In this document: piece by piece, positions 5,784 through 58,092 of the stretch
How the letters are laid out: each line of letters opens with the position of its first letter
How positions within the stretch are numbered: the stretch's first letter is position 1
Source: Candidatus Brocadiia bacterium
GTDB lineage: Bacteria; Planctomycetota; Brocadiia; CAIUPP01
Assembly (NCBI GenBank): GCA_050015075.1
Contig: JBEKCB010000018.1
Coordinates: 20,461 to 84,460, forward strand
DNA: 64,000 nucleotides
Direction: 5' to 3'
The notes under the pieces: generated by a model
The model's input: only the letters and a program-made list of their open reading frames with translations
Databases searched by the model: none
What the model was told of the DNA's origin: nothing
Translations under genes and position numbers: made by a program

Positions 5784-5936
5784 ACCACCGAGACACCAAA
5801 GCACCAAGAACGCCAAATGATAATGCAACCACGGAACACACGGAAGACACTGAAACTGTTTAGCAAAGCCTTTCGGTGTGCTCCGTGTATTCCGTGGTGG
5901 AAGCCGTTGTCTCTTTGTGCCTTGGTGTCTTGGCGG
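5784..5936. repeat. nested palindromic repeat element (outer CACCAAG-unit arms, inner CCACGGAA/ACACGGA-unit arms) between convergent genes
   Basis: gagacaccaaagcaccaag...ccacggaacacacggaagacac || gtgtgctccgtgtattccgtgg...cttggtgtcttggcgg. The same inner module occurs at 29462-29612 and the same outer module at 40874-41047. Confidence 0.8.
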
Positions 5937-5948
5937 TAAATGCGGCGC

Positions 5949-6641
5949 TTAGCTTTTCTGCCCGTAATACGCGTCCGGCCCGTGCTTGCGGAGGAAGTGT
6001 TTCGCGAGGAGGAACTCCGGGATGGGGCCCGCCGCGCCGTTGAGCTGCAACGTGCCCAGCGCGGTCTGCGCGACCAGCTCCAGCGCGACGCTGTTCGTCA
6101 GCGATTCGGCGGCGGTCCTGCCCCACGTGAACGGGCCATGATGCGCGACGAGGACGGCGGGCATCTCGTTCGGGTTGATCTTCTTGAACCGCTCGACGAT
6201 CGCGCGGCCGGTGTTCTCCTCGTACTTGCCGGCGACCTCTTTGCGGGTCAGGGCGCGCGTGACGGGAACCTCGCCGTTGAAATGGTCCGCGTGCGTCGTC
6301 CCCAGGCACGGAATGCCGCGGCCGGCCTGCGCGAACATTGTCGCGCAGGGGCTGTGCGTGTGCGTCACGCCGCCGATTCCCGCAAAGGCGCGGTAGAGCG
6401 CCAGGTGCGTCGGCGCGTCCGTCGAGGGCTGGAGCCTGCCCTCCGCGCGCGCTCCGTCCAGGTCCACGAGCACGATGTCGTGCCGCTTCAAAGCGGCATA
6501 GCCGACGCCGCTGGGCTTGATCGCCATCATCCCTTTCGCGCGGTCGAAGCCGCTGACGTTGCCGAACGTCAGCGTCACCAGCCGGCAGCGCTCCAGTTCC
6601 CGGTTCGCCCGGCACACTTGTTCTTTCAAGTCCTCAAGCAT
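5949..6641 (-). CDS. araD: L-ribulose-5-phosphate 4-epimerase (class II aldolase/adducin family)
   Basis: 230 aa with AraD-like motifs (GVTHTHSP, HHGPFTWG). Confidence 0.8.
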   Translation of the reverse strand: MLEDLKEQVCRANRELERCRLVTLTFGNVSGFDRAKGMMAIKPSGVGYAALKRHDIVLVDLDGARAEGRLQPSTDAPTHLALYRAFAGIGGVTHTHSPCATMFAQAGRGIPCLGTTHADHFNGEVPVTRALTRKEVAGKYEENTGRAIVERFKKINPNEMPAVLVAHHGPFTWGRTAAESLTNSVALELVAQTALGTLQLNGAAGPIPEFLLAKHFLRKHGPDAYYGQKS

Positions 6642-6692
6642 GAGTTCCCTTCGATCCCGTTTTATCCTGTAATCCTGTCAAATCCGTTATCA

Positions 6693-8387
6693 TTATCCGC
6701 GCTGACGTTCGCGGATGCGGATGAGGTCCTTCATCACGTGGTCGAGCTTGCCCGACCACTCGCGCGTGCCGAAGGCGTCGTGCAGCGTGCGGTAGAGCGG
6801 GTAGAGTTCGGCGTAGACCGCCTGCGCCTTCGGGTTCGGGCGGTAGAACTTGTCCTTCACGCCGCAGACGGCGCGCTGCGCCTCGGCCGCGTCCGCGAAC
6901 CCGCCGGCCTCTTTGCCGGCGGCGACCGCGCCGAAGATCGCCGCGCCGAGCGCGCAGGTCTGGTCGCTGCGCGAGACCTTCATCGGGCGGCCGGTGACGT
7001 CGGCGTAGATCTGCATCAGCAGCGGGTTCTTCGCCGCCAGGCCGCCGCAGTTGACGAACTCCTTCACCGGCACGCCGTACTCCTCGATGCGCTTGGCGAT
7101 CGTCAGCGCGCCGAACGCGGTCGCCTCGATCAGCGCGCGGTAAATCTCGTGCGCCTCGGTGTGCAGCGTCTGCCCGAGCAGCAGTCCGCTCAGGCGCACG
7201 TCCACCAGGATCGTGCGGTTGCCGTTGTTCCAGTCGAGCGCCAGCAGGCCGTGCTCGCCGGGCTTCTGCTTCGCGGCGAGCGCGCCAAGCGTCTTGAATT
7301 TCTCGTCCGTCGTCCGGCCGAAGCGCTCCGGCACGAGATGGGCGATGAACCAGAGGAAAATGTCGCCGACGGCGGACTGCCCGGCCTCGATGCCGTAGAA
7401 CCCGGGCAGGATCGAGCCGTCCACGATCCCGCAGACGCCGGGGATGTCGGCGAGCTTCTTCGCGTTGGGCATGACCATCATGTCGCAGGTGCTCGTGCCG
7501 AGGATTTTCACGAGCGTCCCTTCGCGGACGCCGGCGCCTACCGCGCCCATGTGCGCGTCGAACGCGCCGGCGGCGATCGCGATGCCCGGCTTCAGCCCGA
7601 GCTTCTTCGCCCATTCCGCCGAGAGTCGCCCCGCCGCGTGGTCAGCCGGCACCGCCTTCTCGTAGAGCCGCCGGCGCAGCGCGGCCAGAGCCGGGTCGAG
7701 CCCGCGCAGGAACTCCTCGTCCGGCAGGCCGCCCCATTCCGGGCAGTACATCGCCTTGTGGCCGGCGGCGCAGACGCCGCGGACGATTTGCTCCGGCCGC
7801 GTGTCGCCGGCGAGCAGCGCGGGCATCCAGTCGCAGTGCTCGACGAAGCTGTGCGCGGCGGCGAAGACCTTCGGCGCGGCGCGCTTGCAGCGCAGGGCCT
7901 TGCTCCAGAACCACTCCGAGGAATAAGTCCCGCCGCATTTGGCCAGGTACTGCGGCCGGATTTTCCGCGCGCGCGCGGTGATCTCCGCCGCCTCGGCGTG
8001 GCCGGTGTGGTCCTTCCAGAGCCAGGCCATCGCATCGAGGTTCCCCTTGAACTGCGGCAGCATGGCCAGCGGCGTGCCGTCGCGGTCCACCGGCATCGGC
8101 GTGCTGCCGGTGGTGTCAATGCCGATGCCGACGATCTGCGCCGGGTCGAACCGGCGGTCCGCCTTCTTCGCGCGGCGGATCGTCCGCGGCACAACGCCCA
8201 GCGCGGCGACGTAGTCCTGCGGATTCTGCCGCGCCAGGTTCGGCTCGCGCGGATCGAGCAGAATCCCCGCCGCGCCGGACGGAAAATCGAAGACGCAGCT
8301 TTCCACCTCGCGCCCGTCGGCCAGGTCCACGATCAGGCAGCGGCAGGAGTTCGTCCCGTAGTCGAGTCCCAACGCATATCTCTTCAT
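6693..8387 (-). CDS. araB: ribulokinase (FGGY carbohydrate kinase)
   Basis: Start at MKRYALGLDYGTNSCRC with a GGAGAG RBS. FGGY/AraB motifs run throughout. It lies upstream of araD on the same strand. Confidence 0.8.
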   Translation of the reverse strand: MKRYALGLDYGTNSCRCLIVDLADGREVESCVFDFPSGAAGILLDPREPNLARQNPQDYVAALGVVPRTIRRAKKADRRFDPAQIVGIGIDTTGSTPMPVDRDGTPLAMLPQFKGNLDAMAWLWKDHTGHAEAAEITARARKIRPQYLAKCGGTYSSEWFWSKALRCKRAAPKVFAAAHSFVEHCDWMPALLAGDTRPEQIVRGVCAAGHKAMYCPEWGGLPDEEFLRGLDPALAALRRRLYEKAVPADHAAGRLSAEWAKKLGLKPGIAIAAGAFDAHMGAVGAGVREGTLVKILGTSTCDMMVMPNAKKLADIPGVCGIVDGSILPGFYGIEAGQSAVGDIFLWFIAHLVPERFGRTTDEKFKTLGALAAKQKPGEHGLLALDWNNGNRTILVDVRLSGLLLGQTLHTEAHEIYRALIEATAFGALTIAKRIEEYGVPVKEFVNCGGLAAKNPLLMQIYADVTGRPMKVSRSDQTCALGAAIFGAVAAGKEAGGFADAAEAQRAVCGVKDKFYRPNPKAQAVYAELYPLYRTLHDAFGTREWSGKLDHVMKDLIRIRERQRG

Positions 8388-8491
8388 CGCCGGCTCTCCC
8401 GGAACATTCTGACATCCAGCAGGCGTCCACCGTTGCACTATTATCTCCGAGGCGGCGGTTTTTGCAAGAGCTTTGTGCAAACTGACAGAGG

Positions 8492-8640
8492 CTCGCCCGT
8501 TTGACGTCGCGACCCTGCTCGCGATATGCTGCGCGAGCCGTCGGAACGGATCGTCCTCGTCTTCGAACTCGTCCTCGTCCTCGGCTGTTCGTAACGGCCG
8601 TTCGAGGACGGGGACGAGGACGACGACGAGGACGCTTGGC
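8492..8640 (+). repeat. promoter-hairpin repeat cassette, copy 1 (sigma70-like TTGACG-N17-ATATGC followed by a long GTC/GAC-rich imperfect hairpin)
   Basis: cccgtttgacgtcgcgaccctgctcgcgatatgctgcgc, then an imperfect palindrome of about 85 bp built from CGTCCT/AGGACG units. It is nearly identical to 9266-9412. Confidence 0.75.
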
Positions 8641-8733
8641 TAATGGGCGACTCGCCACGAAGAGGCAAGTCGCACGCAACGGGTGCGATACAGTCCGCGC
8701 GCAAGGACGGCGGCTCCCGGTGGAGGAAAATCC

Positions 8734-9135
8734 ATGGCTGATGCGCTTCCGAAAGAGGAAAGTCCCGGAATCTCTGAGGAGGTTAAGCGTGTTGCAGGCG
8801 GTCTCGCACTCTGGATGCGGGTAGTGGCCATCATGGGCTTTCTCGGCGTACTCTACCAGTGGGGTAGGATGTTGCCGCAAGCAAAATTCGCCTCGGCATC
8901 CGAATTCGTTTTCGCCGTCATCAGCGGACTAATAGAATGCTTCGCGCTATTCTATTTATGGCAAAGCGCCGGCTCCTTTCGCCGGCTAGCAAGAGTTGAG
9001 CAGAGCGACGGCCGGCCACTGGAGCATGCGCTCCGGCAACTGAAGACGTACTTCTGCTTCGCGACGATTCTGACCGTGATCGAATTTGCGGCATTCTTTT
9101 GGCTTACCCGCTGGGTCGGCGCGGGAACGCGTTGA
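8734..9135 (+). CDS. small membrane protein (2-3 TM helices), hypothetical; markedly lower GC than its surroundings
   Basis: Start MADALPKEE with a GGAGGA RBS. TM segments VAGGLALWMRVVAIMGFLGVLY and FVFAVISGLIECFALFYLW. Flanked by two copies of the promoter-hairpin repeat. Confidence 0.5.
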   Translation: MADALPKEESPGISEEVKRVAGGLALWMRVVAIMGFLGVLYQWGRMLPQAKFASASEFVFAVISGLIECFALFYLWQSAGSFRRLARVEQSDGRPLEHALRQLKTYFCFATILTVIEFAAFFWLTRWVGAGTR

Positions 9136-9265
9136 GTGACGCCGCAATGCAACAGATACTTGATGCAGTCAAGAAAGCCAACACGGAAAGCCTTCACCAA
9201 TGAGTTTCGCGGCCCGAGCAGGTGGGGCCTGGCCGCTCTAACACCTGACTCCAAACCGATATAGG

Positions 9266-9412
9266 TCCGCCCGTTTGACGTCGCGACCCTGCGCGCGATA
9301 TGCTGCGCCATTTGTTGGAATGGATCGTCCTCGTCCTCGAACTCGTCCTCGGCCGTTTTCTAACGGCCGTTCGAGGACGAGGACGAGGACGGGGACGAGG
9401 ACGATTGGCTTA
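9266..9412 (+). repeat. promoter-hairpin repeat cassette, copy 2
   Basis: cccgtttgacgtcgcgaccctgcgcgcgatatgctgcgc plus a GTC-rich hairpin, immediately upstream of the aldolase gene. Confidence 0.75.
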
Positions 9413-9451
9413 TGGGGAGACTCACGAGTGAAGAGACCCTCTGTCGCCACA

Positions 9452-10336: not shown

Positions 10337-10342
10337 ACTCCC

Positions 10343-10425
10343 AATCGTCCTCGTCCTCGCTCTCGTCCTCGTCCTCGAACGGTAGGTCATAACGGCCGAG
10401 GCGGAGGACGACGACGAGGACGATC
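10343..10425. repeat. GTC/GAC-rich hairpin (hairpin-only copy of the cassette; probable terminator between the aldolase gene and murJ)
   Basis: cgtcctcgtcctcgctctcgtcctcgtcctcgaacgg...ccgaggcggaggacgacgacgaggacg. Confidence 0.7.
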
Positions 10426-13773: not shown

Positions 13774-14799
13774 ATGAAACTGACCGTCGCGGAAGTGAGC
13801 CGCCTTGTAGGCGGCGAGTTGATCGGACCGGGCGAAGCGATCGTCGAGCGCGTGGCCGGCCTGTCGCAGGCCGGGCCGGGCGACATCACCTTCGCGAAGC
13901 GCGAGAACCTCAAGGCGGCGGCCGCCAGCCGCGCGACCGCCGTGCTGGTCCCGGAGCGCGTCGCCGGAATGGCCGCGGCGCAGATCGTCGTCGCGAACCC
14001 GCACTTCGCCTTCGGGGTGCTGCTCGCCCTCGTGGAGAAGGAGCAGCGCGCGCACCCGGCCGGCATTCACCCGTCGGCGGTCCTCGGAGCGGGCGTCCGG
14101 CTGGGGAAGGACGTCGGGCTCGGCGCGCACGCGGTCCTCGGCGACGGCTGCGTTCTCGGCGACCGGACCGTCATTTATCCGAACAGCACCCTGGGCGCGC
14201 ATTGCTCCGTCGGGTCGGATTCGATCATTTACTCCAACGTCGCCATCCGCGAGTGCGTGAGCCTCGGGAGCCGGACGATCATCCACAGCGGCTGCTCGAT
14301 CGGCGGCGACGGCTTCGGCTACCTCCAGGTCGAAGGCCGCCACGTGAAGGTGCCGCAGGTGGGCACGGTCGAGATCGGCGACGACGTCGAGATCGGCTGC
14401 AACTGCACCGTGGACCGCGCGACGATGGACAAGACGATCATCGAGAACGGCGTGAAGATAGACAACCACAGCCACATCGCGCACAATTGCCGGATCGGGG
14501 CGAACTCGATGCTGATCGCCTACGCGCGCATGGGCGGCAGCACGGTGCTGGGCCGGAACGTGCTGCTCGCCGAGGACGTGGGACTCACGAACGGGATTAC
14601 GCTCGGCGACCGCTGCATTGTCGGGGCCTGCTCCAAGGTCTCCCGTTCCTGGCCGGCCGACTCCGTCATCCTCGGCGCGCCCGCGCAGCGCATACAGGAC
14701 GAGAAACGCCAGATCGTGATGATCAAGAAACTCTCGCGGCTCTACGAGATGATGCGGGAGTTGAAGAGAAGCGTTCAGGGCGGGAAAACGGAAGACTGA
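13774..14799 (+). CDS. lpxD: UDP-3-O-(3-hydroxyacyl)glucosamine N-acyltransferase
   Basis: 341 aa with an N-terminal LpxD domain and left-handed beta-helix hexapeptide repeats. Confidence 0.85.
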   Translation: MKLTVAEVSRLVGGELIGPGEAIVERVAGLSQAGPGDITFAKRENLKAAAASRATAVLVPERVAGMAAAQIVVANPHFAFGVLLALVEKEQRAHPAGIHPSAVLGAGVRLGKDVGLGAHAVLGDGCVLGDRTVIYPNSTLGAHCSVGSDSIIYSNVAIRECVSLGSRTIIHSGCSIGGDGFGYLQVEGRHVKVPQVGTVEIGDDVEIGCNCTVDRATMDKTIIENGVKIDNHSHIAHNCRIGANSMLIAYARMGGSTVLGRNVLLAEDVGLTNGITLGDRCIVGACSKVSRSWPADSVILGAPAQRIQDEKRQIVMIKKLSRLYEMMRELKRSVQGGKTED

Positions 14800-14807: not shown

Positions 14808-14880
14808 AATTGCGGATTGGGGAATGCGGACTGCGGATTAGCGTGCCGGCTTTCGCCGTCCACTCCGCACTCCCTAGTCC
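14808..14880. repeat. palindromic element with TGCGGA(T/C)T tandem-unit arms between the convergent lpxD and STAS genes
   Basis: aattgcggattggggaatgcggactgcggatt ... ccgtccactccgcactcc (the reverse complement resembles the left arm). Confidence 0.6.
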
Positions 14881-15383
14881 GGTCCCTTCATCCCGCGCTG
14901 CTTCATCTCCAGCTCCAGCGCGGCGACGAACGGGCGGAAGATCTCCTCGTTGCGGTCGTTGATCTTCATCAGGTGCTCGTGCGCGGCATGGACGCACGCC
15001 AGGCGTTCCTTTTCGCCGCGTTGTTCCTCGAGCCGGACGAATTCCAGCGCCGGCGTCTCGAACGGCTCCGACTCGACGAAAATCAACTCCGTGAGCCCCA
15101 CATTTTTCAACAGTTGCAGCAGCGGCGCGGAGACGTTGACCGCGGCGATACCGGGCGTCTTGTCGTTCTGCTCGAAGGTGGCCGCGCCGGCGAGCACGCC
15201 CATGAACGTGCTGTCCATGCCGGTGCAATCGCCCAGGTCCACGACGATGAAACTCCGTCCCGCGGCGAGCAGGCCTTCCATGAAGGTGCGCAGGCACAGG
15301 CAGTTGCTCATCGTCGCCAGTCCGTGCACGCGCACATAGACGGCGCGCGTGCCGGTGGCGACTTCGTAATACCCGCCTTGCAT
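14874..15383 (-). CDS. STAS-domain protein (anti-sigma-factor antagonist-like)
   Basis: From MQGGYYEVATGTRAVYVRVHGLATMSNCLCLRTFMEG...FIVVDLGDCTGMDSTFMGVL. The ORF part upstream of 15383 overlaps csaA in another frame and is rejected. Confidence 0.5.
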   Translation of the reverse strand: MQGGYYEVATGTRAVYVRVHGLATMSNCLCLRTFMEGLLAAGRSFIVVDLGDCTGMDSTFMGVLAGAATFEQNDKTPGIAAVNVSAPLLQLLKNVGLTELIFVESEPFETPALEFVRLEEQRGEKERLACVHAAHEHLMKINDRNEEIFRPFVAALELEMKQRGMKGPD

Positions 15384-15426
15384 CACAACCAAATCCGAAT
15401 CTCCGCAAACGCCGAGCCAGCAGGCG

Positions 15427-15747
15427 CTATGAGACGCGAGAACCGGGCGCCGCCTGGCCATCCGGCCGGAGCACCAGCACCTTCGGCCCGTCCTGCGCCG
15501 CCAGCAGCATGCCCTGGCTCTCCACTCCGCGCAGCACGGCCGGTTCCAGGTTCGCCACGACGACGATCGTCGAGCCCAGGAGCTGCTCGGGCGTGTAATA
15601 CGCCCGCAGACCGGCGACGATCTGCCGCTCCGTGCCCCCCAGATCAATTTTGAGCACGTACAGCTTGTCGGCGTTAGGATGGTTCTCGACGGAAAGGACC
15701 TTCGCGACGCGGAGGTCCAGCTTTTGAAATTCTGCGAATGGGATCAT
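15427..15747 (-). CDS. csaA: tRNA-binding protein (CsaA/EMAP-like OB fold)
   Basis: 106 aa: DLRVAKVLSVENHPNADKLYVLKIDLGGTERQIVAGLRAYY, a typical tRNA-binding domain. Confidence 0.7.
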   Translation of the reverse strand: MIPFAEFQKLDLRVAKVLSVENHPNADKLYVLKIDLGGTERQIVAGLRAYYTPEQLLGSTIVVVANLEPAVLRGVESQGMLLAAQDGPKVLVLRPDGQAAPGSRVS

Positions 15748-19594: not shown

Positions 19595-20170
19595 ATGAAA
19601 AACCGATGCGAATGGGGCGTCAGCGATCCGCTGTATGTGAAGTACCACGACCGCGAATGGGGAACGCCTCTGCATGACGATCACGGGCTTTTCGAGTTCC
19701 TGGTTCTGGAGGGCGCGCAAGCGGGGCTGAGCTGGCTGACCATCCTCCGGAAACGCGACAACTATCGCAAGGCGTTCGACCGGTTCGATCCGCAGAAGGT
19801 CGCGCGCTATTCGGCGGCGGATGTCCGGCGCCTTCGTGCCGACCCCGGCATTGTGCGCAATCGCCTGAAGATCGAATCGGCCATTCGAAACGCGCGGTGC
19901 GCGCTCGCCGCCGCTGACGAGTTCGGCTCCTTCGACTCCTTCATCTGGCGCTACGTGGACCACCAGCCTCGGCAGAATGCCTGGCGCACGCTGGCCGAAC
20001 TGCCGGCCAGAACCGCGCTCTCCGACAGGATGAGTAAAGAGTTGAAGAAGCGGGGATTCAGCTTCGCGGGCTCGACGATCTGCTACGCCTTCATGCAGGC
20101 GGTCGGGATGGTGAACGACCACGTCGTGGGCTGCTTCCGGCATGAGGAACTGAAGAAGATGGCCCGATAA
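19595..20170 (+). CDS. tag: DNA-3-methyladenine glycosylase I
   Basis: MKNRCEWGVSDPLYVKYHDREWGTPLHDD...GSTICYAFMQAVGMVNDH, a Tag signature. Confidence 0.85.
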   Translation: MKNRCEWGVSDPLYVKYHDREWGTPLHDDHGLFEFLVLEGAQAGLSWLTILRKRDNYRKAFDRFDPQKVARYSAADVRRLRADPGIVRNRLKIESAIRNARCALAAADEFGSFDSFIWRYVDHQPRQNAWRTLAELPARTALSDRMSKELKKRGFSFAGSTICYAFMQAVGMVNDHVVGCFRHEELKKMAR

Positions 20171-20248
20171 GGCAAAACGAGCATTTCCCTTTCGTACAAT
20201 TCCTGGCACAGCAACGATTAATGATTCGCCCGCACAGCTAGCGGATTA

Positions 20249-22422: not shown

Positions 22423-22634
22423 TGATGTTCAAGGCCATCCGCAGGGTAAACGCTTCTGACAAGACGTCCACGTAATACGTTGACCGTTCGCATCCGTTGC
22501 CTTGGAGTATACCAACGTGAGGCGTTTCGCGCCAGCACGCTGTGAGACCCTTTAGCCTCTCGTTTAACGGACCCGCCGACGCGAAGGAGCACAGCGCGAA
22601 CGTGACGTGTCTTGGCGGACGGCCAATCGCTCAT
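22419..22634 (-). CDS. hicA: HicA-like mRNA interferase toxin (putative)
   Basis: 71 aa, basic, with a GSH motif (KREAKGSHSVLAR). Translationally coupled downstream of the HicB-like gene. The assignment is tentative. Confidence 0.4.
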   Translation of the reverse strand: MSDWPSAKTRHVRAVLLRVGGSVKREAKGSHSVLARNASRWYTPRQRMRTVNVLRGRLVRSVYPADGLEHQ

Positions 22635-29437: not shown

Positions 29438-29461
29438 TCGGCGTTTTCCGTTAACCCGAAT

Positions 29462-38962: not shown

Positions 38963-38992
38963 TTCAAAATGAATTAAACTGAGGAGATGAAC

Positions 38993-42408: not shown

Positions 42409-42672
42409 GTCCACCTCGGCGATGAAGAAAGCGCGAGATTCCACCGGCCGCGCTAACACTATACCGGTCTCGCGCGCGCGGTTCAATCGGTCTCGCGTCA
42501 TTCTCCGGCGCGCGAGGGTTAATAGCGCGTCAAGTTATTGACACACGGCGCCTAACCCGATAAACTCCTCCCGCATGCGTTGAAAGGCTCCCGCGGCCGC
42601 GGGCTTCCGCCTTCTCCACCGGGGACAAGACGGTTTCTTCGCCTGCCGACGGGTTCATTGCGTGGAGGCCTG

Positions 42673-47057: not shown

Positions 47058-47101
47058 CGCCGCGGCATCGCAATTACCGCACCGGTTAAAGAGGTTGGGC
47101 C

Positions 47102-49126
47102 ATGGTGAATGGTTCAAGCGCAGACGCCGGACCTCAGACGGAGATCGCCGCCAGGACGCGACTCGATCTACGGAGCGTGCTGCCTTTTATCATAGCGTTT
47201 GCGTTGACGGTATCTGTCGATTTCCTGATTTTGGGCGTCCGCAGCGCGGTTTTCCTGTCGCTCATGGGCATCGCCGTCGCGTGTTGCTTTCTATTCGGCG
47301 TCCGATATGCAGAGCTGCGCCGTGCGCTCTTTGATCGCGAGGGAATGACGTTGCTTCCACGCGGCATCGGCCGCCTGAGCGCGCGTCCGCAGCATTTTCG
47401 CTGGGACGAGGTCGTCGAAGTCCGGCGGATGCCGTTCGGGACGATGCGGCTCCGCCTCAACCGCCCGCGGAAATTCTGGGCGTTCTTTTCGCAGTCGAAG
47501 AATTCAGTCGTGGTCCCCCAACGCATCTGGACGGAGCCGCGATTCGCCGAGGCGCTTCGCACCTTCGTGCCGGCTGAGCGCATCCATGCGGAACTGGCAT
47601 TCGACGAATGCCTTTCTTTCCCGGTGCGATACGCCTGGGTCCTGATGCTGGTGCTCTTCCTTTGCGCTGCGGCGGCCGCAGGGTGCAGCTTCGTCGCTTT
47701 CCGCAGCGCGGGTCTCCCGAGGTCAATCCTCGACCTGTTAATCCTGGCGGTGGCCATGGTCCTTTGCACGGATAGTGCGCGGCCCGCGTTCAGGGTGGTC
47801 GCGGGTTTCCTGTTTACATTCGTGTTTCTGGCGGCGTTCACCATAATTGTAGCGTTTTCGTTTCCCCACGCTCTGAAGCTGATCGCCGGTTACTGGGGCG
47901 CGCTGGCCGGCGCGCTGATCGGCGCGGCGGTCATGGTGATGAACGGCAGGAAGTCCCGCGCAGGATTCTGCGCCGGCGCGACTTTTCTTCTGGCCGCGGC
48001 CGGGTTCTGGTGCGGATGGGCCGGCTTTCCCCAGGTCGCCGGGATACGCCTGGGCGCAGGAGAGGTGGATTATCGCAGTGCCTGGACGCCCAACGGCGAC
48101 GGGTTCCTGTTGACGGAGGACGATTCTTCCGGGGCGGTCGGGCGGCCGAAGACGGTGTGCTGGTATTCATCCGATGCGAAACTGGAACGCCGGAGCGTCC
48201 TGCCCGCCGGTGCGAGCCTTCTCGCAGTCGGCCGGGAAGCGGCGTTCTTCAAGGCCGGCGAGTCGCACGATCAACTCTGGTTCGTGCCGAGACGCGCGGA
48301 GCCGCGAGTCATTAACGAGGCGCCCTACTTCATCAATGTCAGCACGTCGCCCGATGTTCGGCACGCACTCATGGCAGATCGGGACAGGCGAGGCAAAATC
48401 CTCGCCTGGAAAATCTGCGACCTTGATACCGGCAAGGTCGAGCCGGTCAACCTTCCCATGCCGGTGAGTGAGGTTGACTTGATTGCGCTCCACGACGACC
48501 TGACGGCTCTATGGCTGCGCGGCTCGCTGGCGATGGACAAAGGGAATCTCAAGGTGAGCCGCCACGTTCCGGTGCCCGAGAGCGGCGACTTCCAGGTTCC
48601 CGGCAAGCCGTACGTCGTCTGGTCGTGGAAGGTCAATTCCGCCGACTCGCCTGTGAAAGTCTGCGCCGCCAAAACGCAGTGGCTCGATTGGAGGCCCTCG
48701 GACGAGCCCGGGCGAATTCGCGTCTGCCGTGTCTCCGAAAACCCGCCCGCGCGGGTCGAGTACGTCGAGCTGGATTTCACGCAGTCGCTTCCTGCGGAGG
48801 CAACGATCTCCGAGGAGGAGTTCGTCACGACGTGGACGCCGCGGCCGGCCAGCTCCTTTGACGGACGGTTCGCGTTTGAGATCGGCGGTGGCAGATTCGC
48901 TCCCGCATGGATTGTGGACACGAAGGCCGGCAGGAAATTCGGCATGCAGTTGCAAGCAGTGATACTTGGCACGGTGCCTCTTTGGTGGTCGCCGAAGGCG
49001 CACAAGTGCTTGATGGAAATCCCGGAAGTGAAGCTGACGGGCGGGCGTTGGCACTGGCGCCGCGGTTCCGAGGGGATGTTCGATGCCGCCATGGTCGTCT
49101 ACTTCGTAGACATGGACCGTCAATAG
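47102..49126 (+). CDS. membrane protein, tandem paralog 2
   Basis: 674 aa, collinear with paralog 1 (estimated 55-65% identity), and the same C-terminus VVYFVDMDRQ. Confidence 0.65.
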   Translation: MVNGSSADAGPQTEIAARTRLDLRSVLPFIIAFALTVSVDFLILGVRSAVFLSLMGIAVACCFLFGVRYAELRRALFDREGMTLLPRGIGRLSARPQHFRWDEVVEVRRMPFGTMRLRLNRPRKFWAFFSQSKNSVVVPQRIWTEPRFAEALRTFVPAERIHAELAFDECLSFPVRYAWVLMLVLFLCAAAAAGCSFVAFRSAGLPRSILDLLILAVAMVLCTDSARPAFRVVAGFLFTFVFLAAFTIIVAFSFPHALKLIAGYWGALAGALIGAAVMVMNGRKSRAGFCAGATFLLAAAGFWCGWAGFPQVAGIRLGAGEVDYRSAWTPNGDGFLLTEDDSSGAVGRPKTVCWYSSDAKLERRSVLPAGASLLAVGREAAFFKAGESHDQLWFVPRRAEPRVINEAPYFINVSTSPDVRHALMADRDRRGKILAWKICDLDTGKVEPVNLPMPVSEVDLIALHDDLTALWLRGSLAMDKGNLKVSRHVPVPESGDFQVPGKPYVVWSWKVNSADSPVKVCAAKTQWLDWRPSDEPGRIRVCRVSENPPARVEYVELDFTQSLPAEATISEEEFVTTWTPRPASSFDGRFAFEIGGGRFAPAWIVDTKAGRKFGMQLQAVILGTVPLWWSPKAHKCLMEIPEVKLTGGRWHWRRGSEGMFDAAMVVYFVDMDRQ

Positions 49127-49163
49127 CGCCGCGGCATCGCAACGACCGCGCCGGCTAAAGGGG

Positions 49164-51227
49164 TTGGACATGATGAACGATTCTCAGGCGAACGCCGGCT
49201 CGCAGACGGAGATCGTCGCTGGGACGGAATCCAAGCTGGCGGCCGCGTTGCCTATGATCATACCATTTGCGTTCTGCGTCCTTTTGGAATTCGTGACTTT
49301 GGGCATTTGGGGCGTGGTCTGCCTGCTGCTCATTGGCATTGCCGTAGGGGCCGATGCTCTTTACTCGGCCCGATATAGAATGCCTCGCCGGGCGCTCCTT
49401 GATCGCGAGGGAATGACGTTGCTTCCGCTGGAGACCGGCCGCTTCAGCGGGCGTCCGCTGCATTTTCGCTGGGACGAGGTGCTCGAAGTCCGGCGCGCAT
49501 CGCGCTGGAAAGGCTGCGCGTTGCAAGTGCGCCTGGACCGCCCGCGGAAATTCTGGACGTTCAGTCCGCAGCGGCAGGATTTGATCTCGGTCCCCCGAGG
49601 CGTCTGTGCGAACCCGCAGTTTGCCGAGGCGATCCGCGCTCACGTCCCGGCTGAGCGGATCCATGGGGAACTGGCCTGCGACGAACGCCTTTCCTTATCA
49701 GCCCGATACCGGTGGGTCTTGGTTTTAGTGATGCTCGCCTGCGCCGCCATGACCGCAGGGTGCAGCTTCGCTATTATTCGCGGCGAGAATTTCCTGGCGG
49801 CCCTTTTGGCGGCGGTCATCGCACTGATGATCGGAGCGATGGCCATGGCGTTTTGCGCCAGCCATGCGCCCAGGGCATTCGGACTGATCGCAGGGATCTT
49901 CAATACGTTCGCCTTTCTCTCGCTTACAGGCCCTTTCATGCCATTTTTCTTCCCGAGCGGCCTGGCGCTGATCGCCGCTGGCCTGGGCGCCGCGGCCGGT
50001 ACGTTGGCCGGTGCGGCGATCATGGTGATCAAAGGCAGGAAGGCCGGCGGATGGGGCTACGCCGGCGCGACTTTTGTTCTGGCCGCGGCCGGGTTCTGGT
50101 GCGCGTGGACAAGCTTTCACCAGATCAGCGAGATACGCGTGGACGCCGGCAGCCTTGACATTCGCAGCCCGTGGACGCCCAAGGGCGATGCTTTCTGGAT
50201 AACGGAGGGCGATTCTTTCGCCTCACCCGATGAGCCGGCCTCGGTGTGCTGGTATTCGCGCGACTTAAAACTGGAACGCCGCGCCGTCCTGCCCGGCCAT
50301 GCGCACACTCTCGCGGTCGGCGAGGATGCGGCGCTCCTCTGCGTCAAGGGCCAGCCGGATGACCAGCTCTGGCTCGTCCCCAGGAACGCGGAACCGCGAG
50401 TCGTTGACGAGGCGCCGTACTTCGGGAACGGCGCTGTTATATCGCCCGATTCTCGTCATGCTCTCGTTTCCATTTGGGGTACGGAGCGTGAACCGGTTGC
50501 GTGGAAAGTCTATGACCTTGAGACCGGCGAGGTGGAGACCGTGAACTTCCCCGTGCCGCTGAAAGAGGTTTCCCCGATCACGCTCCGCGACGACGGAACG
50601 GTCCTATGGCTGTCCGGCTCGCGGCCGCTGGACAAGGGGAATTACCCGACGACCCACCTTACCCCGCTGCCCGAGAGCGGCGAGTTCCCGCATCCCGGCA
50701 AACCGTTCGTCGTCTGGGCGTGGAAGATCAATTCCGTCGATGCGCCCGCGAAGCTCTACGCCGCCGGGACCCAGTGGCTTGAATGGCGCCGGCCGGACAA
50801 GTCCCAGCGGCTTTACGTCTGCCGCGTCTCAGAGAATCCGCCTGCGCGGGTCGAGTGCGTCACGCTCGATTTCGCGCAGTCGCCGCCCGCCCAGACAACG
50901 ATATCGCAAGATGAGTTCGAGTTCCACCAGCCCTGGATGCCCCGGACGCGCTCCTTTGACGGACGTTTTGCGTTCGCGGCTGCCGAACGCGGCTTCTTCG
51001 CCCCGGCGTTCATCGTGGACACGAAGACCGGCAGAAAATTCCGCTTGCCGGCTCCGGCAATGCCGTTCGGCCCGTCGTACGTTCATTGGTCGCCGAGCGA
51101 GAACAAATTCTTGATCGAGGTCACGCAATCCAAGCTCCCGGCCGGACTCTGGCGCTGGCGCCGGGACACTGAGAAGACCTTAGAGCCCGCCACCGTCGTT
51201 TACTTCGTGGACATGGACCGTCAATAA
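49164..51227 (+). CDS. membrane protein, tandem paralog 3
   Basis: 687 aa, collinear with paralogs 1 and 2, with the same N-terminal and C-terminal blocks. Confidence 0.65.
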   Translation: MDMMNDSQANAGSQTEIVAGTESKLAAALPMIIPFAFCVLLEFVTLGIWGVVCLLLIGIAVGADALYSARYRMPRRALLDREGMTLLPLETGRFSGRPLHFRWDEVLEVRRASRWKGCALQVRLDRPRKFWTFSPQRQDLISVPRGVCANPQFAEAIRAHVPAERIHGELACDERLSLSARYRWVLVLVMLACAAMTAGCSFAIIRGENFLAALLAAVIALMIGAMAMAFCASHAPRAFGLIAGIFNTFAFLSLTGPFMPFFFPSGLALIAAGLGAAAGTLAGAAIMVIKGRKAGGWGYAGATFVLAAAGFWCAWTSFHQISEIRVDAGSLDIRSPWTPKGDAFWITEGDSFASPDEPASVCWYSRDLKLERRAVLPGHAHTLAVGEDAALLCVKGQPDDQLWLVPRNAEPRVVDEAPYFGNGAVISPDSRHALVSIWGTEREPVAWKVYDLETGEVETVNFPVPLKEVSPITLRDDGTVLWLSGSRPLDKGNYPTTHLTPLPESGEFPHPGKPFVVWAWKINSVDAPAKLYAAGTQWLEWRRPDKSQRLYVCRVSENPPARVECVTLDFAQSPPAQTTISQDEFEFHQPWMPRTRSFDGRFAFAAAERGFFAPAFIVDTKTGRKFRLPAPAMPFGPSYVHWSPSENKFLIEVTQSKLPAGLWRWRRDTEKTLEPATVVYFVDMDRQ

Positions 51228-53981: not shown

Positions 53982-54344
53982 ATGAAGGAGTTCATGGCGG
54001 TCACGAAGGCGCTGGCCGACGACAACCGGACGCGGGCGCTGATGTGCCTGCGCGACGGCGAACTGTGCGTCTGCCAGATCATCGAGCTGCTGCAGCTCGC
54101 GCCCTCGACGGTCTCGAAGCACTTGAATATCCTGCACCGGGCCGGGCTGCTCGAGTCGCGCAAGGAGGGGCGCTGGATCTATTACCGGCTCGCCGGCCCG
54201 GACGCGCCGGAGGCCGCGCGCGAGGCGCTGCGCTGGGTCCGCCAGTCGCTCGCGAAAGACCCGCAGATCGCCCGCGACGCCGCCCGGCTCAAAGCGATCC
54301 GCAAGATGGACGTGCGGCAACTGTGTGAACGGTATCGTAGTTAG
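53982..54344 (+). CDS. arsR: ArsR/SmtB family metalloregulatory transcriptional repressor
   Basis: LCVCQIIELLQLAPSTVSKHLNILHRAGLL, with an ELCVCQI metal-binding site. Confidence 0.8.
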   Translation: MKEFMAVTKALADDNRTRALMCLRDGELCVCQIIELLQLAPSTVSKHLNILHRAGLLESRKEGRWIYYRLAGPDAPEAAREALRWVRQSLAKDPQIARDAARLKAIRKMDVRQLCERYRS

Positions 54345-54364
54345 TCGCTGCCGTGGAGAGAGTT

Positions 54365-55231
54365 ATGGCGAAGACGCTCAAGGTCCTGTTCCTGTGCACG
54401 GGCAATTCCTGCCGAAGCCAGATGGCCGAGGGCTGGGCGCGACGCCTCAAAGGCGACGTGATCGAGGCTTGGTCCGCCGGCATCGAAACCCACGGGCTGA
54501 ACCCGCTGGCGGTGAAGGCGATGGCCGAGGCCGGAGTGGACATCTCGCGCCAGCGCTCGAAGAGCGTGGCCGAAGTGAAGGACGTGCCTTTCGACTACGT
54601 GGTGACCGTCTGCGACCACGCGCACGAGAGCTGCCCGCTGTTTCCGGGCAAGGCGAAGATCGTCCACGTGGGATTCGACGATCCGCCGCGCCTCGCCAGG
54701 GACGCCAGGACCGAAGAGGAGGCGCTGGGACATTACCGGCGCGTCCGGGATGAGATCCGCGCGTACGTCGAGCGCATTCCGGAGGCATTGACCGGCGCGG
54801 GCTGGAATCACAAGGCGCGCGTGCTCTTCTTATGTACAGGCAATTCCGCGCGCAGCCAGATGGCCGAGGCCTTCCTGCGCAAGTACGGCGGAGACCGCTT
54901 TGAACCGCACAGCGCGGGGTTGGACCCGCGGCCCATCCACCCATTGGCGGTGCGCGTGATGCAGGAGGCCGGGATAGACATCCGCCGGCAGCGCTCGAAA
55001 AGCGTGCGCGAGTACCTGGGCAAGATGCATTTTCACCACCTGATCGTCGTGTGCGAGCAAGCCGACCGCAACTGTCCGACGACCTTCCCCGGCATCGGCG
55101 GCCGGCTGTTCTGGCCCTTTGAAGACCCCGCCTCATTCGCCGGCGCCGACGACGAAAAGCTGGCCAGGTTCCGTGAAGTCCGCGACCGGATCGAGGCTCG
55201 CATCAGGGAGTGGATCAAGAGCCAGCCATGA
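54365..55231 (+). CDS. arsC: tandem-fused arsenate reductase (two LMW-PTP / thioredoxin-coupled ArsC domains)
   Basis: Two repeats, each with a CTGNS(C/A)RSQMAE P-loop and a C-X6-C pair (CDHAHESCP / CEQADRNCP). Confidence 0.8.
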   Translation: MAKTLKVLFLCTGNSCRSQMAEGWARRLKGDVIEAWSAGIETHGLNPLAVKAMAEAGVDISRQRSKSVAEVKDVPFDYVVTVCDHAHESCPLFPGKAKIVHVGFDDPPRLARDARTEEEALGHYRRVRDEIRAYVERIPEALTGAGWNHKARVLFLCTGNSARSQMAEAFLRKYGGDRFEPHSAGLDPRPIHPLAVRVMQEAGIDIRRQRSKSVREYLGKMHFHHLIVVCEQADRNCPTTFPGIGGRLFWPFEDPASFAGADDEKLARFREVRDRIEARIREWIKSQP

Positions 55232-55255
55232 CTCTCACAGCAACGGAAAGATCGA

Positions 55256-56362
55256 ATGAATGAAAGCCTCGCAAGGCGTTTGTCGTTTCTCGACCGGTAC
55301 CTGACGCTCTGGATTTTCCTGGCCATGGCGGCGGGCGTACTGCTGGGATATCTCGCGCCGGGCGTCGGCGACTGGATCGGCTCGCTTCGCCCCGCCGGCA
55401 CGCAGACGAGCATCCCCATCGCCGTCGGCCTCATCCTGATGATGTACCCGCCGCTGGCGAAGGTGAAGTACGAGGAACTCGGCGACGTCTTCCGCAATTA
55501 CAAGGTGCTGGGCCTGTCGCTGCTCCAGAACTGGGTCATCGGCCCGGTCCTGATGTTCGGCCTGGCCGTGCTGTTCCTGCGCGGGCGGCCGGAGTTCATG
55601 ATCGGCCTGATTATGATCGGCCTTGCCCGCTGCATCGCGATGGTGATCGTGTGGAACGACCTGGCCAAAGGGGACGCCGAATACGCCGCCGGGCTGGTGG
55701 CGTTCAACTCCATCTTCCAGGTGTTTTTCTACAGCGTGTATGCATGGTTTTTCATCACCGTCCTGCCGCCGATGCTCGGACTGAAAGGGGCCGACACCTC
55801 GGCCATCACCATCGGGCAGATCGCGCGGAGCGTGTTCATCTACCTGGGCATTCCGTTCCTGGCCGGCATGATCACGCGCGCGGTCCTGGTGAAGCTCAAG
55901 GGCAAGGAGTGGTACCATGGCGCCTTCATTCCGAAGATCAGCCCGATCACGCTGGTGGCGCTGCTGTTCACGATTGTGGTAATGTTCTCCATGCAGGGCC
56001 GGAAGATTATCGCGCGGCCGCTTGACGTGGTGCTGATCGCCGTGCCGCTGCTGATCTACTTCGTCGTGATGTTCCTGGCGAGCTTCTGGATGAGCCGGAA
56101 GGTCGGCGCGAATTACGCGCAGAGCGCCACGCTGTCGTTCACGGCGGCCAGCAATAACTTCGAGCTGGCCATCGCGGTGGCCGTCGGGGTGTTCGGCATC
56201 AACCACGGGGCCGCATTCGCCGCGGTCATCGGCCCGCTGGTGGAAGTGCCGGCGCTGATCGGCCTGGTGAATGTCAGCCTGTGGCTCAAGAGGAAGTGGT
56301 TCGCCGGCGAGCCGGCCGAGGTCGCGCCCGGCTGCGCCGTCGGCGGGCGCTCAGCGCAATAA
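55256..56362 (+). CDS. acr3: arsenite efflux transporter ACR3 family
   Basis: 368 aa with 10 TM helices and ACR3/ArsB-like conservation ([31 protein letters not shown]). Confidence 0.85.
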
Positions 56363-56372
56363 GGAGGCGGCG

Positions 56373-57419
56373 ATGGATGCGAAACTGACGCGATGTTCGC
56401 CTGCAAGAGTCGTCCTGGGCGTGGCGCTGGCGGCCGGCGGCTTGCTCTGGTCCGGGTGCAATCCCGGTGCCGACGTGCAGCAAAAACCTGTTGTCGTCGG
56501 CTGCGCCACTTCTACCGCGGTCAAGTCGCCGAAGGAACTCGCCCTGGCCGGCTTCCTCAGCGGGTTGAAGTTGGAGGGCAAGCCCGTCCTGATCGAGTTC
56601 GGAATGGTCGGCTGCGTGTTGAGCGGACAGGGCCTCGACAACATGATCGCCCTGCAATCGGCCGGCACAGTGCCCGGCCTGGCGTTCGTGCGCGTGGAAG
56701 GCAACCCGGACGACGCAGCCGTCGCGCAGTACTTCAAAGACAAGGCGCCGCCGTTTCCCGTTTACCGGGACCGCCAATCCGCTCTGGCCAAGGCGCTCAG
56801 CGCCACGGCCTATCCCACGTTCCTGCTGGCGGACAAGTTCGGGCACATTCGCTACCAGGGCAATTACCCGCAGGAGAACCTGGTGAAGTGGGCCCAGGCT
56901 CTCGTGGCCGAGAACCAGGACCCGGACGGCAACGCGCCGCAATTCGGCGCAAGGGAGCTCGACGTCGAGAAACTCCTGGCGGACAAACTGCCCGACCTGA
57001 AAGACCGGATCAAGCCCCTGGGCGAGTACAAAGGAAGCGGCGGGCTGGTGCTGCTGTTCGTGGATACCTCCTGTCCTTTCTCGGCGGCCGCGTTGCGGGA
57101 GATGCCGGCGGTCTCCAAGACGCTCGCCGGGCGGAACGTTAACGCAGTCGTCCTGAACACCGGCGATTCGCAGTCCGACGTGCGGGAGTTCTACGCGCGG
57201 AACGACCCTGGCGCGCCGGTCCTTTACGACGTCGGAGCAGCCACGCGCGACGGGTGGAACGTGCATTCGGTTCCGGTCGTCGTTTACATCAGCCCGGCCG
57301 GCAAGGTCGGCTATCAGGGCGAAGCGATCTGGGCCAACATGGGGTCGGCCATCGGGACCTCGCTGGGGCTGGCGCCCGGCGCCATCAAGTTCACGGCGAC
57401 CGGCACAGGCTTTGGCTGA
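56373..57419 (+). CDS. thioredoxin-like (redoxin/TlpA-like) tandem two-domain lipoprotein with CxxS motifs
   Basis: AAGGAGG RBS. Signal peptide with lipobox LWSGC. Two thioredoxin-fold halves with CVLS and CPFS in place of CxxC. Confidence 0.55.
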   Translation: MDAKLTRCSPARVVLGVALAAGGLLWSGCNPGADVQQKPVVVGCATSTAVKSPKELALAGFLSGLKLEGKPVLIEFGMVGCVLSGQGLDNMIALQSAGTVPGLAFVRVEGNPDDAAVAQYFKDKAPPFPVYRDRQSALAKALSATAYPTFLLADKFGHIRYQGNYPQENLVKWAQALVAENQDPDGNAPQFGARELDVEKLLADKLPDLKDRIKPLGEYKGSGGLVLLFVDTSCPFSAAALREMPAVSKTLAGRNVNAVVLNTGDSQSDVREFYARNDPGAPVLYDVGAATRDGWNVHSVPVVVYISPAGKVGYQGEAIWANMGSAIGTSLGLAPGAIKFTATGTGFG

Positions 57420-57435
57420 GGGAAGTAACGACGTT

Positions 57436-57456
57436 GCGCCGCCCGTGAGGCGGCGC
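57436..57456 (+). terminator. GC-rich stem-loop after the thioredoxin-like gene (candidate terminator, weak U-tract)
   Basis: gcgccgcc-cgtga-ggcggcgc. Confidence 0.35.
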
Positions 57457-57539
57457 GGAAGAACGATTCCTGGGGTCCCGGCGGAGGCCCTTCGCTCCGC
57501 TGGAGCATGAAGTGAAGTCGTCGTTGCAGGAGGAAAACC

Positions 57540-57995
57540 ATGAGCAAGAACGGCGAGGCCGCCGTGGCGATGTTCCTGCAGGGGTACAACTGCGCGCAAT
57601 CCGTGCTGGTGAGCTGCGGGCAAGAGTACGGCCTGCCGCGCGAGACGGCGGTGCGGGTGGCGCAGGCGTTCGGCGGCGGCATCGGCCGCAGCGGCAACGT
57701 CTGCGGCGCGGCGACCGGCGCGCTGATGACCGTCGGGCTGAAATGCTCCGTGAAGGACGCGACGGACCTCGCGGCGAAAGCGGAGGCCGGCCGCATCGCG
57801 CAGGAATTCCTCGCGCGCTTCAAGGCGCGCAGCGGATCGCTCCTGTGCCGCGACATCATCGGCTGCGACCTGTCCACGGCGGAAGGCTACAAGTACGCCG
57901 TCGAGAGCGGCCGCCACCAGACCATCTGCCCCAAGGCCATCCGCGACGCGATCGAGATTATCGAAGATCTCTTGAACCCTGTGGAGAAACGTTAG
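57540..57995 (+). CDS. C_GCAxxG_C_C family redox-active protein
   Basis: GYNCAQSVL and VCGAATGA motifs. Confidence 0.7.
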   Translation: MSKNGEAAVAMFLQGYNCAQSVLVSCGQEYGLPRETAVRVAQAFGGGIGRSGNVCGAATGALMTVGLKCSVKDATDLAAKAEAGRIAQEFLARFKARSGSLLCRDIIGCDLSTAEGYKYAVESGRHQTICPKAIRDAIEIIEDLLNPVEKR

Positions 57996-58092
57996 GACAT
58001 TGGGAAATTGGGAGATTAGGAGATTGGGACATCTGAAGAGCGCTGCGACAGCCTCCTAATCTCCCAATCTCCTAATCACCCAATCTCCTAAC
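57996..58092. repeat. palindrome with TTGGGAGA/TTAGGAGA tandem-unit arms between the C_GCAxxG gene and arsM; a half-copy also at 58897-58935
   Basis: ggacattgggaaattgggagattaggagattgggac ... cctcctaatctcccaatctcctaatcacccaatctcc. Confidence 0.7.

Follow-up and report, generated by a model that had tools for sequence, protein, structure and literature searches.

The 64-kb window examined here (64,000 nucleotides of a contig from a Candidatus Brocadiia bacterium, ~66% GC) contains ten intergenic hairpins, designated elements A to H, J, and K, and one half-copy, H2. Stretches identical to parts of the window are present in several ENA and Logan assemblies, and the nearest named protein to its HisB comes from Candidatus Brocadiia (69% identity). 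An earlier reading made from the letters of this DNA (the sequence-only reading) had proposed at least ten palindromic elements, and all ten hairpins and the half-copy were present at, or a few bases from, the positions it gave. The arms of the hairpins consisted of tandem 6-10-nt units, with Tandem Repeats Finder detecting periods of 6, 8, 9, and 10 nt within arms, and were 27-76 nt long; those of A, B, C, D, E, F, G, and H were among the longest pairs returned by an inverted-repeat search of the window. When RNA folding of each element was compared with that of 200 dinucleotide shuffles of the same element, none of the 200 shuffles folded equally well for any hairpin. The z-scores were -8.4 for A, -6.4 for E, -12.4 for F, -20.1 for G, -9.8 for H, -7.9 for both B and C, -4.4 for D, -4.5 for J, and -4.2 for K, and the best fold, that of G, had an energy of -125.6 kcal/mol. 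The hairpins occur at a density of ~1 per 6 kb, and the genes that flank them, whose identities were confirmed with Pfam, have no common function. A search of the whole window with Rfam 15 at gathering thresholds matched a tRNA (4186-4258) and no hairpin.

Elements A, E, F, and G have a GC content of 42-50%, far under that of the window, and share sequence modules. A (5784-5937) lies between the convergent genes of a major facilitator superfamily transporter (4478-5767, + strand) and a class II aldolase (5949-6641, - strand) and is a composite hairpin, in which outer arms of CACCAAG-type 8-nt units (5784-5809 and 5912-5937) surround inner arms of CACGGAAyA 9-nt units (5828-5855 and 5871-5898), both with an AACC tip. 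E (29462-29612) separates def (29616-30203, - strand) from fmt (28490-29437, - strand), as the sequence-only reading had stated and Pfam gene calls bore out. It is a copy of A in the opposite orientation, with intact inner arms (29503-29529 and 29547-29573) and an outer right arm that lacks one 8-nt unit. The inner module that A and E had been said to share understated their likeness, which extends at 88.8% identity across the entire 152 bp, loops and spacers included. A single composite element, duplicated within the genome, accounts for both A and E.

G (40874-41045), located between convergent alr (39725-40864, + strand) and a UDP-glucose dehydrogenase gene (41050-42501, - strand), is also composite. 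Its 76-nt arms (40874-40949 and 40970-41045) are 89% complementary, with an outer module of three CACCAAGr units (40876-40902 and 41017-41043) and an inner module of the form GGAACC-ACAGATGA x3 (40918-40949 and 40970-41001). F (38882-38963) has arms (38882-38911 and 38934-38963) that are 97% complementary, carry AACC-ACAGATGrA x3, and enclose a 22-nt loop. Two further instances of module sharing held up: the outer arms of A and G differ at ~3 of 26 positions, and CACAGATGrA x3 is common to F and the inner module of G (G-inner). The outer CACCAAG modules thus pair as a mosaic with inner CACGGAA or CACAGATGA modules. F also overlaps the stop codon of hisC, as had been noted, and the HisC tail is ~10 amino acids longer than those of relatives (..TTDGHR*). 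The added observation that the same tail is encoded on both strands merely follows from palindromy, and a minus-strand open reading frame (ORF) that ends in F (38942-39481) is spurious, as it overlaps hisB.

The module common to F and G-inner recurs far beyond this genome. A scan of 185,579 species genomes for CACAGATGrACACAGATG found at least 119 stretches, against an estimated chance expectation of ~35. Among the matches listed were loci of Cyanobacteria, Acidobacteriota, Planctomycetota, Verrucomicrobiota, Chloroflexota, Proteobacteria, NC10, Spirochaetota, and Methanosarcina, with a locus GC of 38-69%, and an inverted partner was found downstream within 700 nt in 85 of 138 matches listed and upstream only in 3. 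The CACAGATGA module almost always took the form of AACC-tipped inverted arms in one polarity, typically with three 10-nt units, in the layout 5'-(A/G)nC-CACAGATGrA x3 ... mirror-3' and with a loop of 4 to several hundred nt. Outer modules of CACGGAA, CACGGAG, or CACAGAG units surrounded inner CACAGATG modules in other phyla (L063, L067, L086), which makes the mosaic of A, E, and G a general feature.

The palindromes of these elements are assembly breakpoints: one assembled fragment ends inside E (L003; window 29445-29609), and another ends in an artificial fold-back at E (L004, 1-165). Although such ends are what fold-back chimeras made by metagenome assemblers would leave, long contigs from independent assemblies contain the elements internally, and the CACAGATGA module is also present in the isolate genomes of Scytonema sp. 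NIES-4073, Fischerella thermalis PCC 7521, and Wenzhouxiangella, which leaves a negligible probability that the hairpins are artefacts of this kind. The sequence of E was unchanged in two other assemblies (L001, L002).

In five lineages (L021, L028, L032, L063, L083), the loop between the arms was 340-450 nt long and corresponded to an ORF of 120-137 codons encoding a GxxExxY protein (TIGR04256, E about 1e-43; Pfam PF13366, PDDEXK_3, E about 1e-41). One of these gene-carrying cassettes (L063) was flanked by composite outer-plus-inner arms, and arms with 9-nt units like those of A/E-inner were found in a gammaproteobacterium and a viral contig (L009, L298) and at GxxExxY genes in L195, L132, and L157. 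Two GxxExxY genes that had not been chosen by arm pattern, L108 and L077 (a pseudogene), were also bracketed by three-unit inverted arms, whose units (CGCAGATnTC and CACGAATrnA) differ from CACAGATGA. The association was also seen in a sample selected by protein only, which was drawn from a metagenome scan with protein alignment and comprised the loci of the best 80 of 591 relatives, 76 of them testable: inverted repeats beat the best shuffled control (11.5; control mean 7.8) around 61 of the 76 GxxExxY genes, and the arms consisted of tandem units of the type AACC-rC-nGATGAA. By crude ORF calls, the cassette and the upstream ORF were co-oriented in 22 of 26 cases, and the gaps to both neighbors were 3-30 nt. 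Across ~1.2 Mb of loci, GxxExxY was the only cargo that recurred between tandem-unit arms, and larger "cargos" turned out to be ordinary genes flanked by two neighboring hairpins. At one place (bYyjl4HW), a bAvd-like four-helix-bundle gene (PF22296) lies ~2.4 kb upstream of the GxxExxY gene, beyond a TIR-domain sulfatase-like gene.

Alignment of 45 cassette arms in register gave the consensus TgtAACCGCAGATGAACGCaGATGAACGCaGAT. The unit positions C-C--GAT--A were nearly invariant, and the other positions varied. In the wider superfamily of palindromic elements to which A, E, F, and G would belong, an AACC tip is followed by three phased 8-10-nt units in each arm (consensus GGAACC-rC-nGATGAA-CrC-nGATGAA-CrC-nGAT). 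The N-terminal consensus of the protein family, MNADxxRL, equals the arm unit ATGAACGCnGAT (ATG AAC GCn GAT), and thus the coding sequence of the GxxExxY gene begins inside the left arm, which holds its start codon and initial codons. A different coding role, that three 10-nt units place a stop codon in all three frames, was considered and set aside: this property was weak (26% of arms against 14% of shuffles) and inapplicable to 8- or 9-nt units. Readings of the unit as an integron attC site, DnaA box, LexA box, or IHF site were rejected for lack of fit by eye.

A hidden Markov model built solely from the 45 metagenomic GxxExxY-cassette arms was searched against the 64-kb window. It matched exactly four arms at E-values of 9e-9 to 2e-7, namely those of F (9e-9 and 2e-7) and those of G-inner (about 1e-7), and the next match in the window had an E-value of 0.05. 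By this model-based test of sequence, F and G-inner belong to the GxxExxY-arm family as members that lack the gene. The inner modules of A and E and the outer CACCAAG modules probably belong to the same family, because they have the AACC tip and the three-unit design and are nested with recognized modules. The sequence-only reading had treated all of the elements as one family of shuffled modules, which does not hold. The ten elements are at least two sequence classes, as the cassette-arm model recognized only F and G-inner, and B, C, D, H, J, and K have the architecture alone in common with them.

The GxxExxY protein (~125 codons) is predicted to be a minimal RecB/Cas4-like PD-(D/E)XK nuclease. 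Its AlphaFold model had a pLDDT (predicted local distance difference test) score of 92, and the best matches in the PDB were the Cas4 protein SSO0001, a lambda-exonuclease-like enzyme, and the AddAB nuclease domain, with template-modeling (TM) scores of about 0.38-0.56; matches to Hjc and tRNA-splicing endonuclease structures were weaker. Asp71, Glu81, and Lys83 of the model form a D...ExK motif, in which E81 and K83 were invariant in both alignments and D71 in the alignment of six sequences; among 35 members, the conservation of D71 was at least 90%. A sequence search of solved structures gave no match, PADLOC gave only a faint match to Cas4, and PHROGs gave none. The GxxExxY/PDDEXK_3 family is very large, with at least 7,900 relatives scored, and a survey of the superfamily lists PDDEXK_3 as "function unknown" with multiple transfers between bacterial divisions and Archaea (Steczkiewicz et al., PMC3424549).

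Orthologous junctions in relatives, retrieved through HisB homologues over the hisC-hisB-alr region, differed in whether they carried a hairpin and in which one. In the window, the hisC-hisB spacer is 83 nt (F), the hisB-alr spacer is 141 nt (J), and the spacer between alr and the dehydrogenase gene is 185 nt (G). In L311 (HisB 91% identical; 85-92% nucleotide identity), the same spacers are 2, 6, and 1 nt, the gene after alr being a homolog of the window's dehydrogenase gene. The last ten codons of L311 hisC (..SHRGTQMRRS*; L311 960-1005) are encoded by a degenerate single F-like arm, and arms of elements can therefore turn into protein C-termini. In L312 (HisB 92%), hisC and hisB overlap and an AATTGCG/AATTGGG heptamer hairpin lies between hisB and alr. 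In L124 (HisB 88%), an unrelated AACC-tipped hairpin occupies the hisC-hisB junction and none lies between hisB and alr. In L126 (HisB 77%), hisC-hisB has no hairpin, hisB-alr has a CACGGAG x3 hairpin, and a CCTGACA hairpin lies between hisD and hisC. The unit of H forms a hairpin at a differing site in L124 and L125; in L124 it lies as an octamer hairpin between two genes whose junction in the window is 52 nt and empty. The sequence-only reading had named such a comparison as a check, with conserved regulatory RNAs as the outcome that would count against mobility. The observed presence, absence, or replacement at single junctions excludes conserved regulatory RNAs, argues against stable host terminators, and favors insertion and turnover.

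This polymorphism upholds the part of the sequence-only reading that described a mobile or recombining repeat, but not its comparison to repetitive extragenic palindromic sequences and bacterial interspersed mosaic elements (REP/BIME). Classical REP/BIME elements, including REP doublets that form hairpins (REPINs), are spread by a REP-associated tyrosine transposase (RAYT) of the IS200-like Y1 type, and extragenic palindromes with mosaic modules at ~1 per 6 kb would suit such elements. The arms here, however, lack a GTAG or CGTC head and are tandem-unit structures of 27-76 nt, not simple palindromes of 20-40 nt. The search for a RAYT/IS200-like transposase found none among the genes of the 64-kb window or of relatives' annotated contigs, and no transposase of another kind was found in the window. 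Moreover, the gene repeatedly enclosed by the arms elsewhere encodes the GxxExxY PD-(D/E)XK nuclease. We consider a RAYT-driven origin very improbable.

Elements B, C, D, H, J, and K resemble A, E, F, and G in architecture and turnover but have unrelated 6-8-nt units. B (8552-8634; arms 8552-8583 and 8603-8634) consists of CGTCCT/GAGGAC hexamers in a divergent intergenic region, C (9324-9405; arms 9324-9354 and 9375-9405) is a copy of B upstream of fba, and D (10344-10424; arms 10344-10384 and 10390-10424) uses the same hexamer unit 8 nt past the fba stop codon (10336) and before murJ. B and C are parts of a duplicated ~165-bp block that combines a TTGACG-18-TATGCT promoter-like site (8501-8530 at B and 9275-9304 at C) with the hairpin ~20 nt downstream; the two direct copies are ~88% identical. 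The blocks (8496-9425) flank an ORF (8734-9135) of 133 codons that has a low GC content at third codon positions (GC3), is hydrophobic, and had no match in Pfam, and the region looks like a gene inserted along with a duplicated fba leader. J (39596-39675), between hisB and alr, is a weak hairpin of CGTAAT/ATTACG hexamers, and K (14808-14881) is an imperfect hairpin of TGCGGAy heptamers between convergent lpxD (13774-14799, + strand) and a STAS-domain gene (14874-15647, - strand). H (57992-58091; arms about 57992-58032 and 58053-58091) consists of ATTrGGAr octamers and lies between a C_GCAxxG gene (57540-57995, + strand) and an S-adenosylmethionine (SAM) methyltransferase gene (58106-58900, + strand). 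The half-copy of H proposed by the sequence-only reading is H2 (58895-58933, + strand), a one-sided tandem array of H units at the 3' end of the methyltransferase gene that has no partner arm and, by comparison with 200 dinucleotide shuffles, forms no hairpin (z +1.1). One unit type at consecutive junctions, as in B-C-D and H-H2, suggests local copying. These six elements are probably a parallel class, or else a class that diverged after gene loss.

Units of the K and H types also occur elsewhere. The K heptamer TGCGGAy x3 was found in 71 viral-contig stretches and the H octamer ATTrGGAr x2 in 32, mostly as one-sided tandem arrays at gene boundaries with few hairpins. K- and H-like hairpins were present in metagenome-assembled genomes of a Tepidisphaerales bacterium (L030) and an Ardenticatenaceae bacterium (L036), and L030 also has a K heptamer array. 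In four viral contigs (L244, L249, L263, L276), TGCGGAT x4 arrays in both orientations lie between terminase-like and portal-like genes, so that inverted heptamer arrays flank phage structural and packaging genes. In the window, H and H2 bracket an arsM-like methyltransferase gene in an arsenic-type cluster (53982-58900) that comprises arsR (HTH_5), a double low-molecular-weight phosphatase (arsC-like), an ACR3/SBF carrier, and thioredoxin-like, C_GCAxxG_C_C, and SAM methyltransferase genes.

One-sided arrays of this kind, the ~10-nt unit that equals one helical turn, and the near invariance of C-C--GAT--A amid variable positions are all features expected of binding-site arrays for a sequence-specific nucleic-acid-binding protein, whose phased 7-10-nt repeats would be read on one helix face or as single-stranded RNA in a regulatory or chromosome-organizing network. 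A protein-binding role has been proposed for the TAACTGA repeats of distant phyla (MacGregor 2015, PMC4679880). On the other hand, differences between close strains in presence and unit type at one junction are hard to fit to a regulon, the flanking genes share no function, and there is no candidate protein besides the enclosed nuclease, with which this explanation would merge into the one we favor below. As a separate explanation, we judge it improbable.

Several observations bear on whether the hairpins act at transcript 3' ends. A stop codon lies closely upstream of 10 of the 11 elements. A, G, and K lie at convergent gene ends, and B and C, which are not in the position of terminators, lie ~20 nt 3' of promoter-like sites. 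E, F, J, D, and H are within probable operons. By inspection of the sequence, no T-run follows any element. Consensus hairpin-plus-T-run terminators were no more frequent in the window than expected (14 where 14.7 were expected, and 4 where 13.4 were expected), and that scan placed none at a gene end and none at the hairpin sites; sigma-70-like promoters were enriched. A role as 3'-end structures is plausible. That the elements are not independent terminators, as the sequence-only reading had also argued, is supported by the 152-bp copies A and E, by modules that recur far beyond this genome, and by the differing junctions of relatives.

These observations also bear on a host-generated origin, in which slippage makes the tandem units, intrastrand template switching copies them to the other arm, and the hairpins are retained as terminators without a U-tract or as stabilizers of mRNA 3' ends. 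The likeness across phyla would then be convergent or would result from occasional transfer, and GxxExxY genes would merely lodge in hairpins. The position of 10 of 11 elements after a gene 3' end and the lack of enrichment of canonical terminators fit this proposal. So do the many unit sequences found among close relatives at the same sites, the failure to see target-site duplications (discussed below), and the greater similarity of units within one arm than between elements, as concerted local evolution gives. By contrast, several results are at odds with it. First, A and E are 152-bp copies at unlinked sites, loops included. Second, identical 30-nt arms with one polarity and an AACC tip are found in genomes of 38-69% GC, from Cyanobacteria to Methanosarcina. 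Third, the start codon and first codons of GxxExxY genes lie inside arms family-wide, which ties the arm to the gene. Finally, the arms have no G-U strand bias, and B and C are at the 5' ends of probable transcripts. We therefore regard a host-generated origin as unlikely.

Considering together the anatomy of the hairpins, their recurrence across phyla, the association of arms with GxxExxY genes, the polymorphism among relatives, and the duplication of A and E, we think that the best reading of A, E, F, and G is as relatives of GxxExxY cassettes that have no gene and resemble miniature inverted-repeat transposable elements (MITEs). We assign a probability of roughly 55% to this explanation as a whole, including its premise that the hairpins are insertions and not conserved host signals. 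The complete element would be a GxxExxY gene of ~125 codons between two arms, found in many phyla and wedged a few bases after a host stop codon, mostly in the orientation of the host gene. Since the loops of the window copies are 15-22 nt long and hold no gene, these copies would be derivatives and not cassettes, and since the arm carries the gene's start codon, the simplest history may be that the gene was lost from a cassette, as for MITEs. The elements would be moved or copied by the GxxExxY nuclease, encoded elsewhere in the genome and acting in trans, or, alternatively, by host recombination or repair acting on the palindrome. Once inserted, the RNA hairpin may act as a 3'-end, terminator-like or stabilizing structure, in a genome region without canonical hairpin-plus-U terminators.

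A number of results weigh against this explanation. With respect to sequence, the arm model missed A and E, which have 9-nt units, as well as the outer CACCAAG modules, and a search of ~2 Mb of other loci turned up no CACCAAG module. With respect to the gene, six-frame searches with hmmsearch turned up no GxxExxY gene in the window, and the fragments of close relatives likewise yielded none; no gene is tied to B, C, D, H, J, or K. With respect to movement, no pair of filled and empty alleles was found at one site, and the gene may have been lost from a cassette or may instead have lodged in a pre-existing hairpin. An identical GxxExxY protein in 19 contigs was always in one neighborhood, with no sign of recent movement. 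No target-site duplications were seen at 43 cassette boundaries or at A, E, and G, where boundaries are fuzzy and short duplications possible, and no transposition-like junction was defined at the boundaries of elements or cassettes. With respect to function, mismatches in the arms of 46 cassettes were G-U-compatible or A-C in similar numbers (51 vs 41, p = 0.35), with no strand bias, and thus nothing speaks for selection on RNA structure. The location of B and C downstream of promoter-like sites is at odds with a 3'-end role. By crude ORF calls, gene-less copies in other phyla were distributed roughly at random among convergent, co-directional, and divergent contexts, and divergent regions were not avoided.

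A bolder extension of the cassette explanation is that GxxExxY cassettes are an unrecognized class of autonomous mobile elements in bacteria and archaea, which we put forward as possible but doubtful. Under this extension, the minimal nuclease would recognize three helically phased 10-bp repeats at each inverted end, and the element would copy itself by homing or by cut-and-repair at the palindrome, just past host stop codons. Expression of the cassette gene might depend on read-through from the host gene or on coupling to its translation. The gene-less hairpins F, G, A, and E would be MITEs and a source of widespread spurious "..ICVHLW.." mini-ORFs, and after gene loss the arms would drift by concerted evolution into units like those of B-D, H, J, and K. 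A literature search, outside which most subscription journals and database family notes lay, found no description of the arms or of the arm-GxxExxY association, and an earlier mention is possible.

Other features of the window are recorded here as side observations. Three adjacent, paralogous-looking ORFs of ~680 codons (45009-47057, 47102-49126, and 49164-51227, within 45009-51227) had no Pfam match and a GC3 of 0.76-0.77, under that of their neighbors. A low-GC island (20000-22500; 0.51 vs 0.66) contains two minus-strand ORFs without a Pfam match (20249-21061 and 21058-22422), adjoins a HicB-like antitoxin gene, and is possibly foreign DNA. ARAGORN predicted a tRNA-Asn (32733-32808, - strand) within a GFO_IDH_MocA ORF (31825-32829), which had no support from Rfam and is probably a false positive. 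Beside a URO-D/MtaA-like gene is a homologue of MttB-family trimethylamine methyltransferases (2604-4172), and the two form a methylamine or betaine methyltransferase pair (1345-4172, - strand). The window also encodes a prepilin-type N-methylation protein.

The arm-GxxExxY association links a gene family of unknown function to a recognizable DNA architecture and thereby offers a candidate, open to testing, for a novel type of mobile element, and the arm itself is a concrete candidate substrate for GxxExxY biochemistry. If correct, the cassette explanation would account for long AT-rich palindromes that break metagenome assemblies, for the spurious small ORFs that arise from them, and for how quickly gene junctions, and even the C-terminal ends of proteins (here, that of HisC), are remodeled in many genomes, Planctomycetota-like ones included. 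With a simple arm model, annotation pipelines could mask the elements.

Among known systems, intrinsic terminators resemble the hairpins in having a stable stem right after a stop codon, but the elements here have no U-tract, stems of 27-76 bp, and a GC content of 40-50% in a 66% GC genome; their sequence is common to several phyla, and B and C are at the 5' ends of probable transcripts. REP, BIME, and REPIN sequences are likewise extragenic mosaic palindromes, often at gene 3' ends and with candidate roles in termination or mRNA stabilization. They differ in being lineage-specific, whereas the arm sequence here is common to phyla, and in having the tag and the RAYT that the window lacks; the arms here are longer and internally repetitive. 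Intervening sequences of 23S rRNA reportedly may contain a small ORF. They share with the cassettes a small ORF within inverted repeats, a long stem in the transcript, and a sporadic distribution, but their ORF encodes a four-helix bundle, they lie inside rRNA and are removed by RNase III, and no tandem-unit arms have been reported for them. The Foldback transposons of Drosophila have long inverted ends made of short tandem subrepeats, and many copies consist of ends only. The likeness is one of architecture alone, as Foldback elements are eukaryotic, kilobase-sized, and unrelated in sequence and enzymes.

The short tandemly repeated repetitive (STRR) heptamers of cyanobacteria are said to be short tandem intergenic repeats. 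The TAACTGA repeats found in Beggiatoaceae, Cyanobacteria, and Bacteroidetes have been proposed to spread horizontally, by no known mechanism, and to have the protein-binding role mentioned above (MacGregor 2015, PMC4679880). Both resemble H, H2, K, J, B-D, and the phage-contig arrays in having 6-8-nt units at gene boundaries in distant taxa, but they are direct arrays, often just 5' of start codons, whereas the units here mostly form paired hairpins. Finally, MITEs differ from the elements of the window in several respects: no target-site duplication was seen for the hairpins, the enclosed gene encodes a 125-amino-acid PD-(D/E)XK nuclease that is a candidate for a role in mobility and not a DDE, serine, or tyrosine transposase, and the hairpin ends consist of three phased tandem units with a start codon within one end. 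As in MITEs, however, short gene-less elements share inverted ends with a longer gene-carrying element, since the arms of F and G-inner match the cassette-arm model. In further agreement, the elements are intergenic, vary in presence among relatives (F, J, and G are absent from L311), and occur as unlinked copies (A and E).

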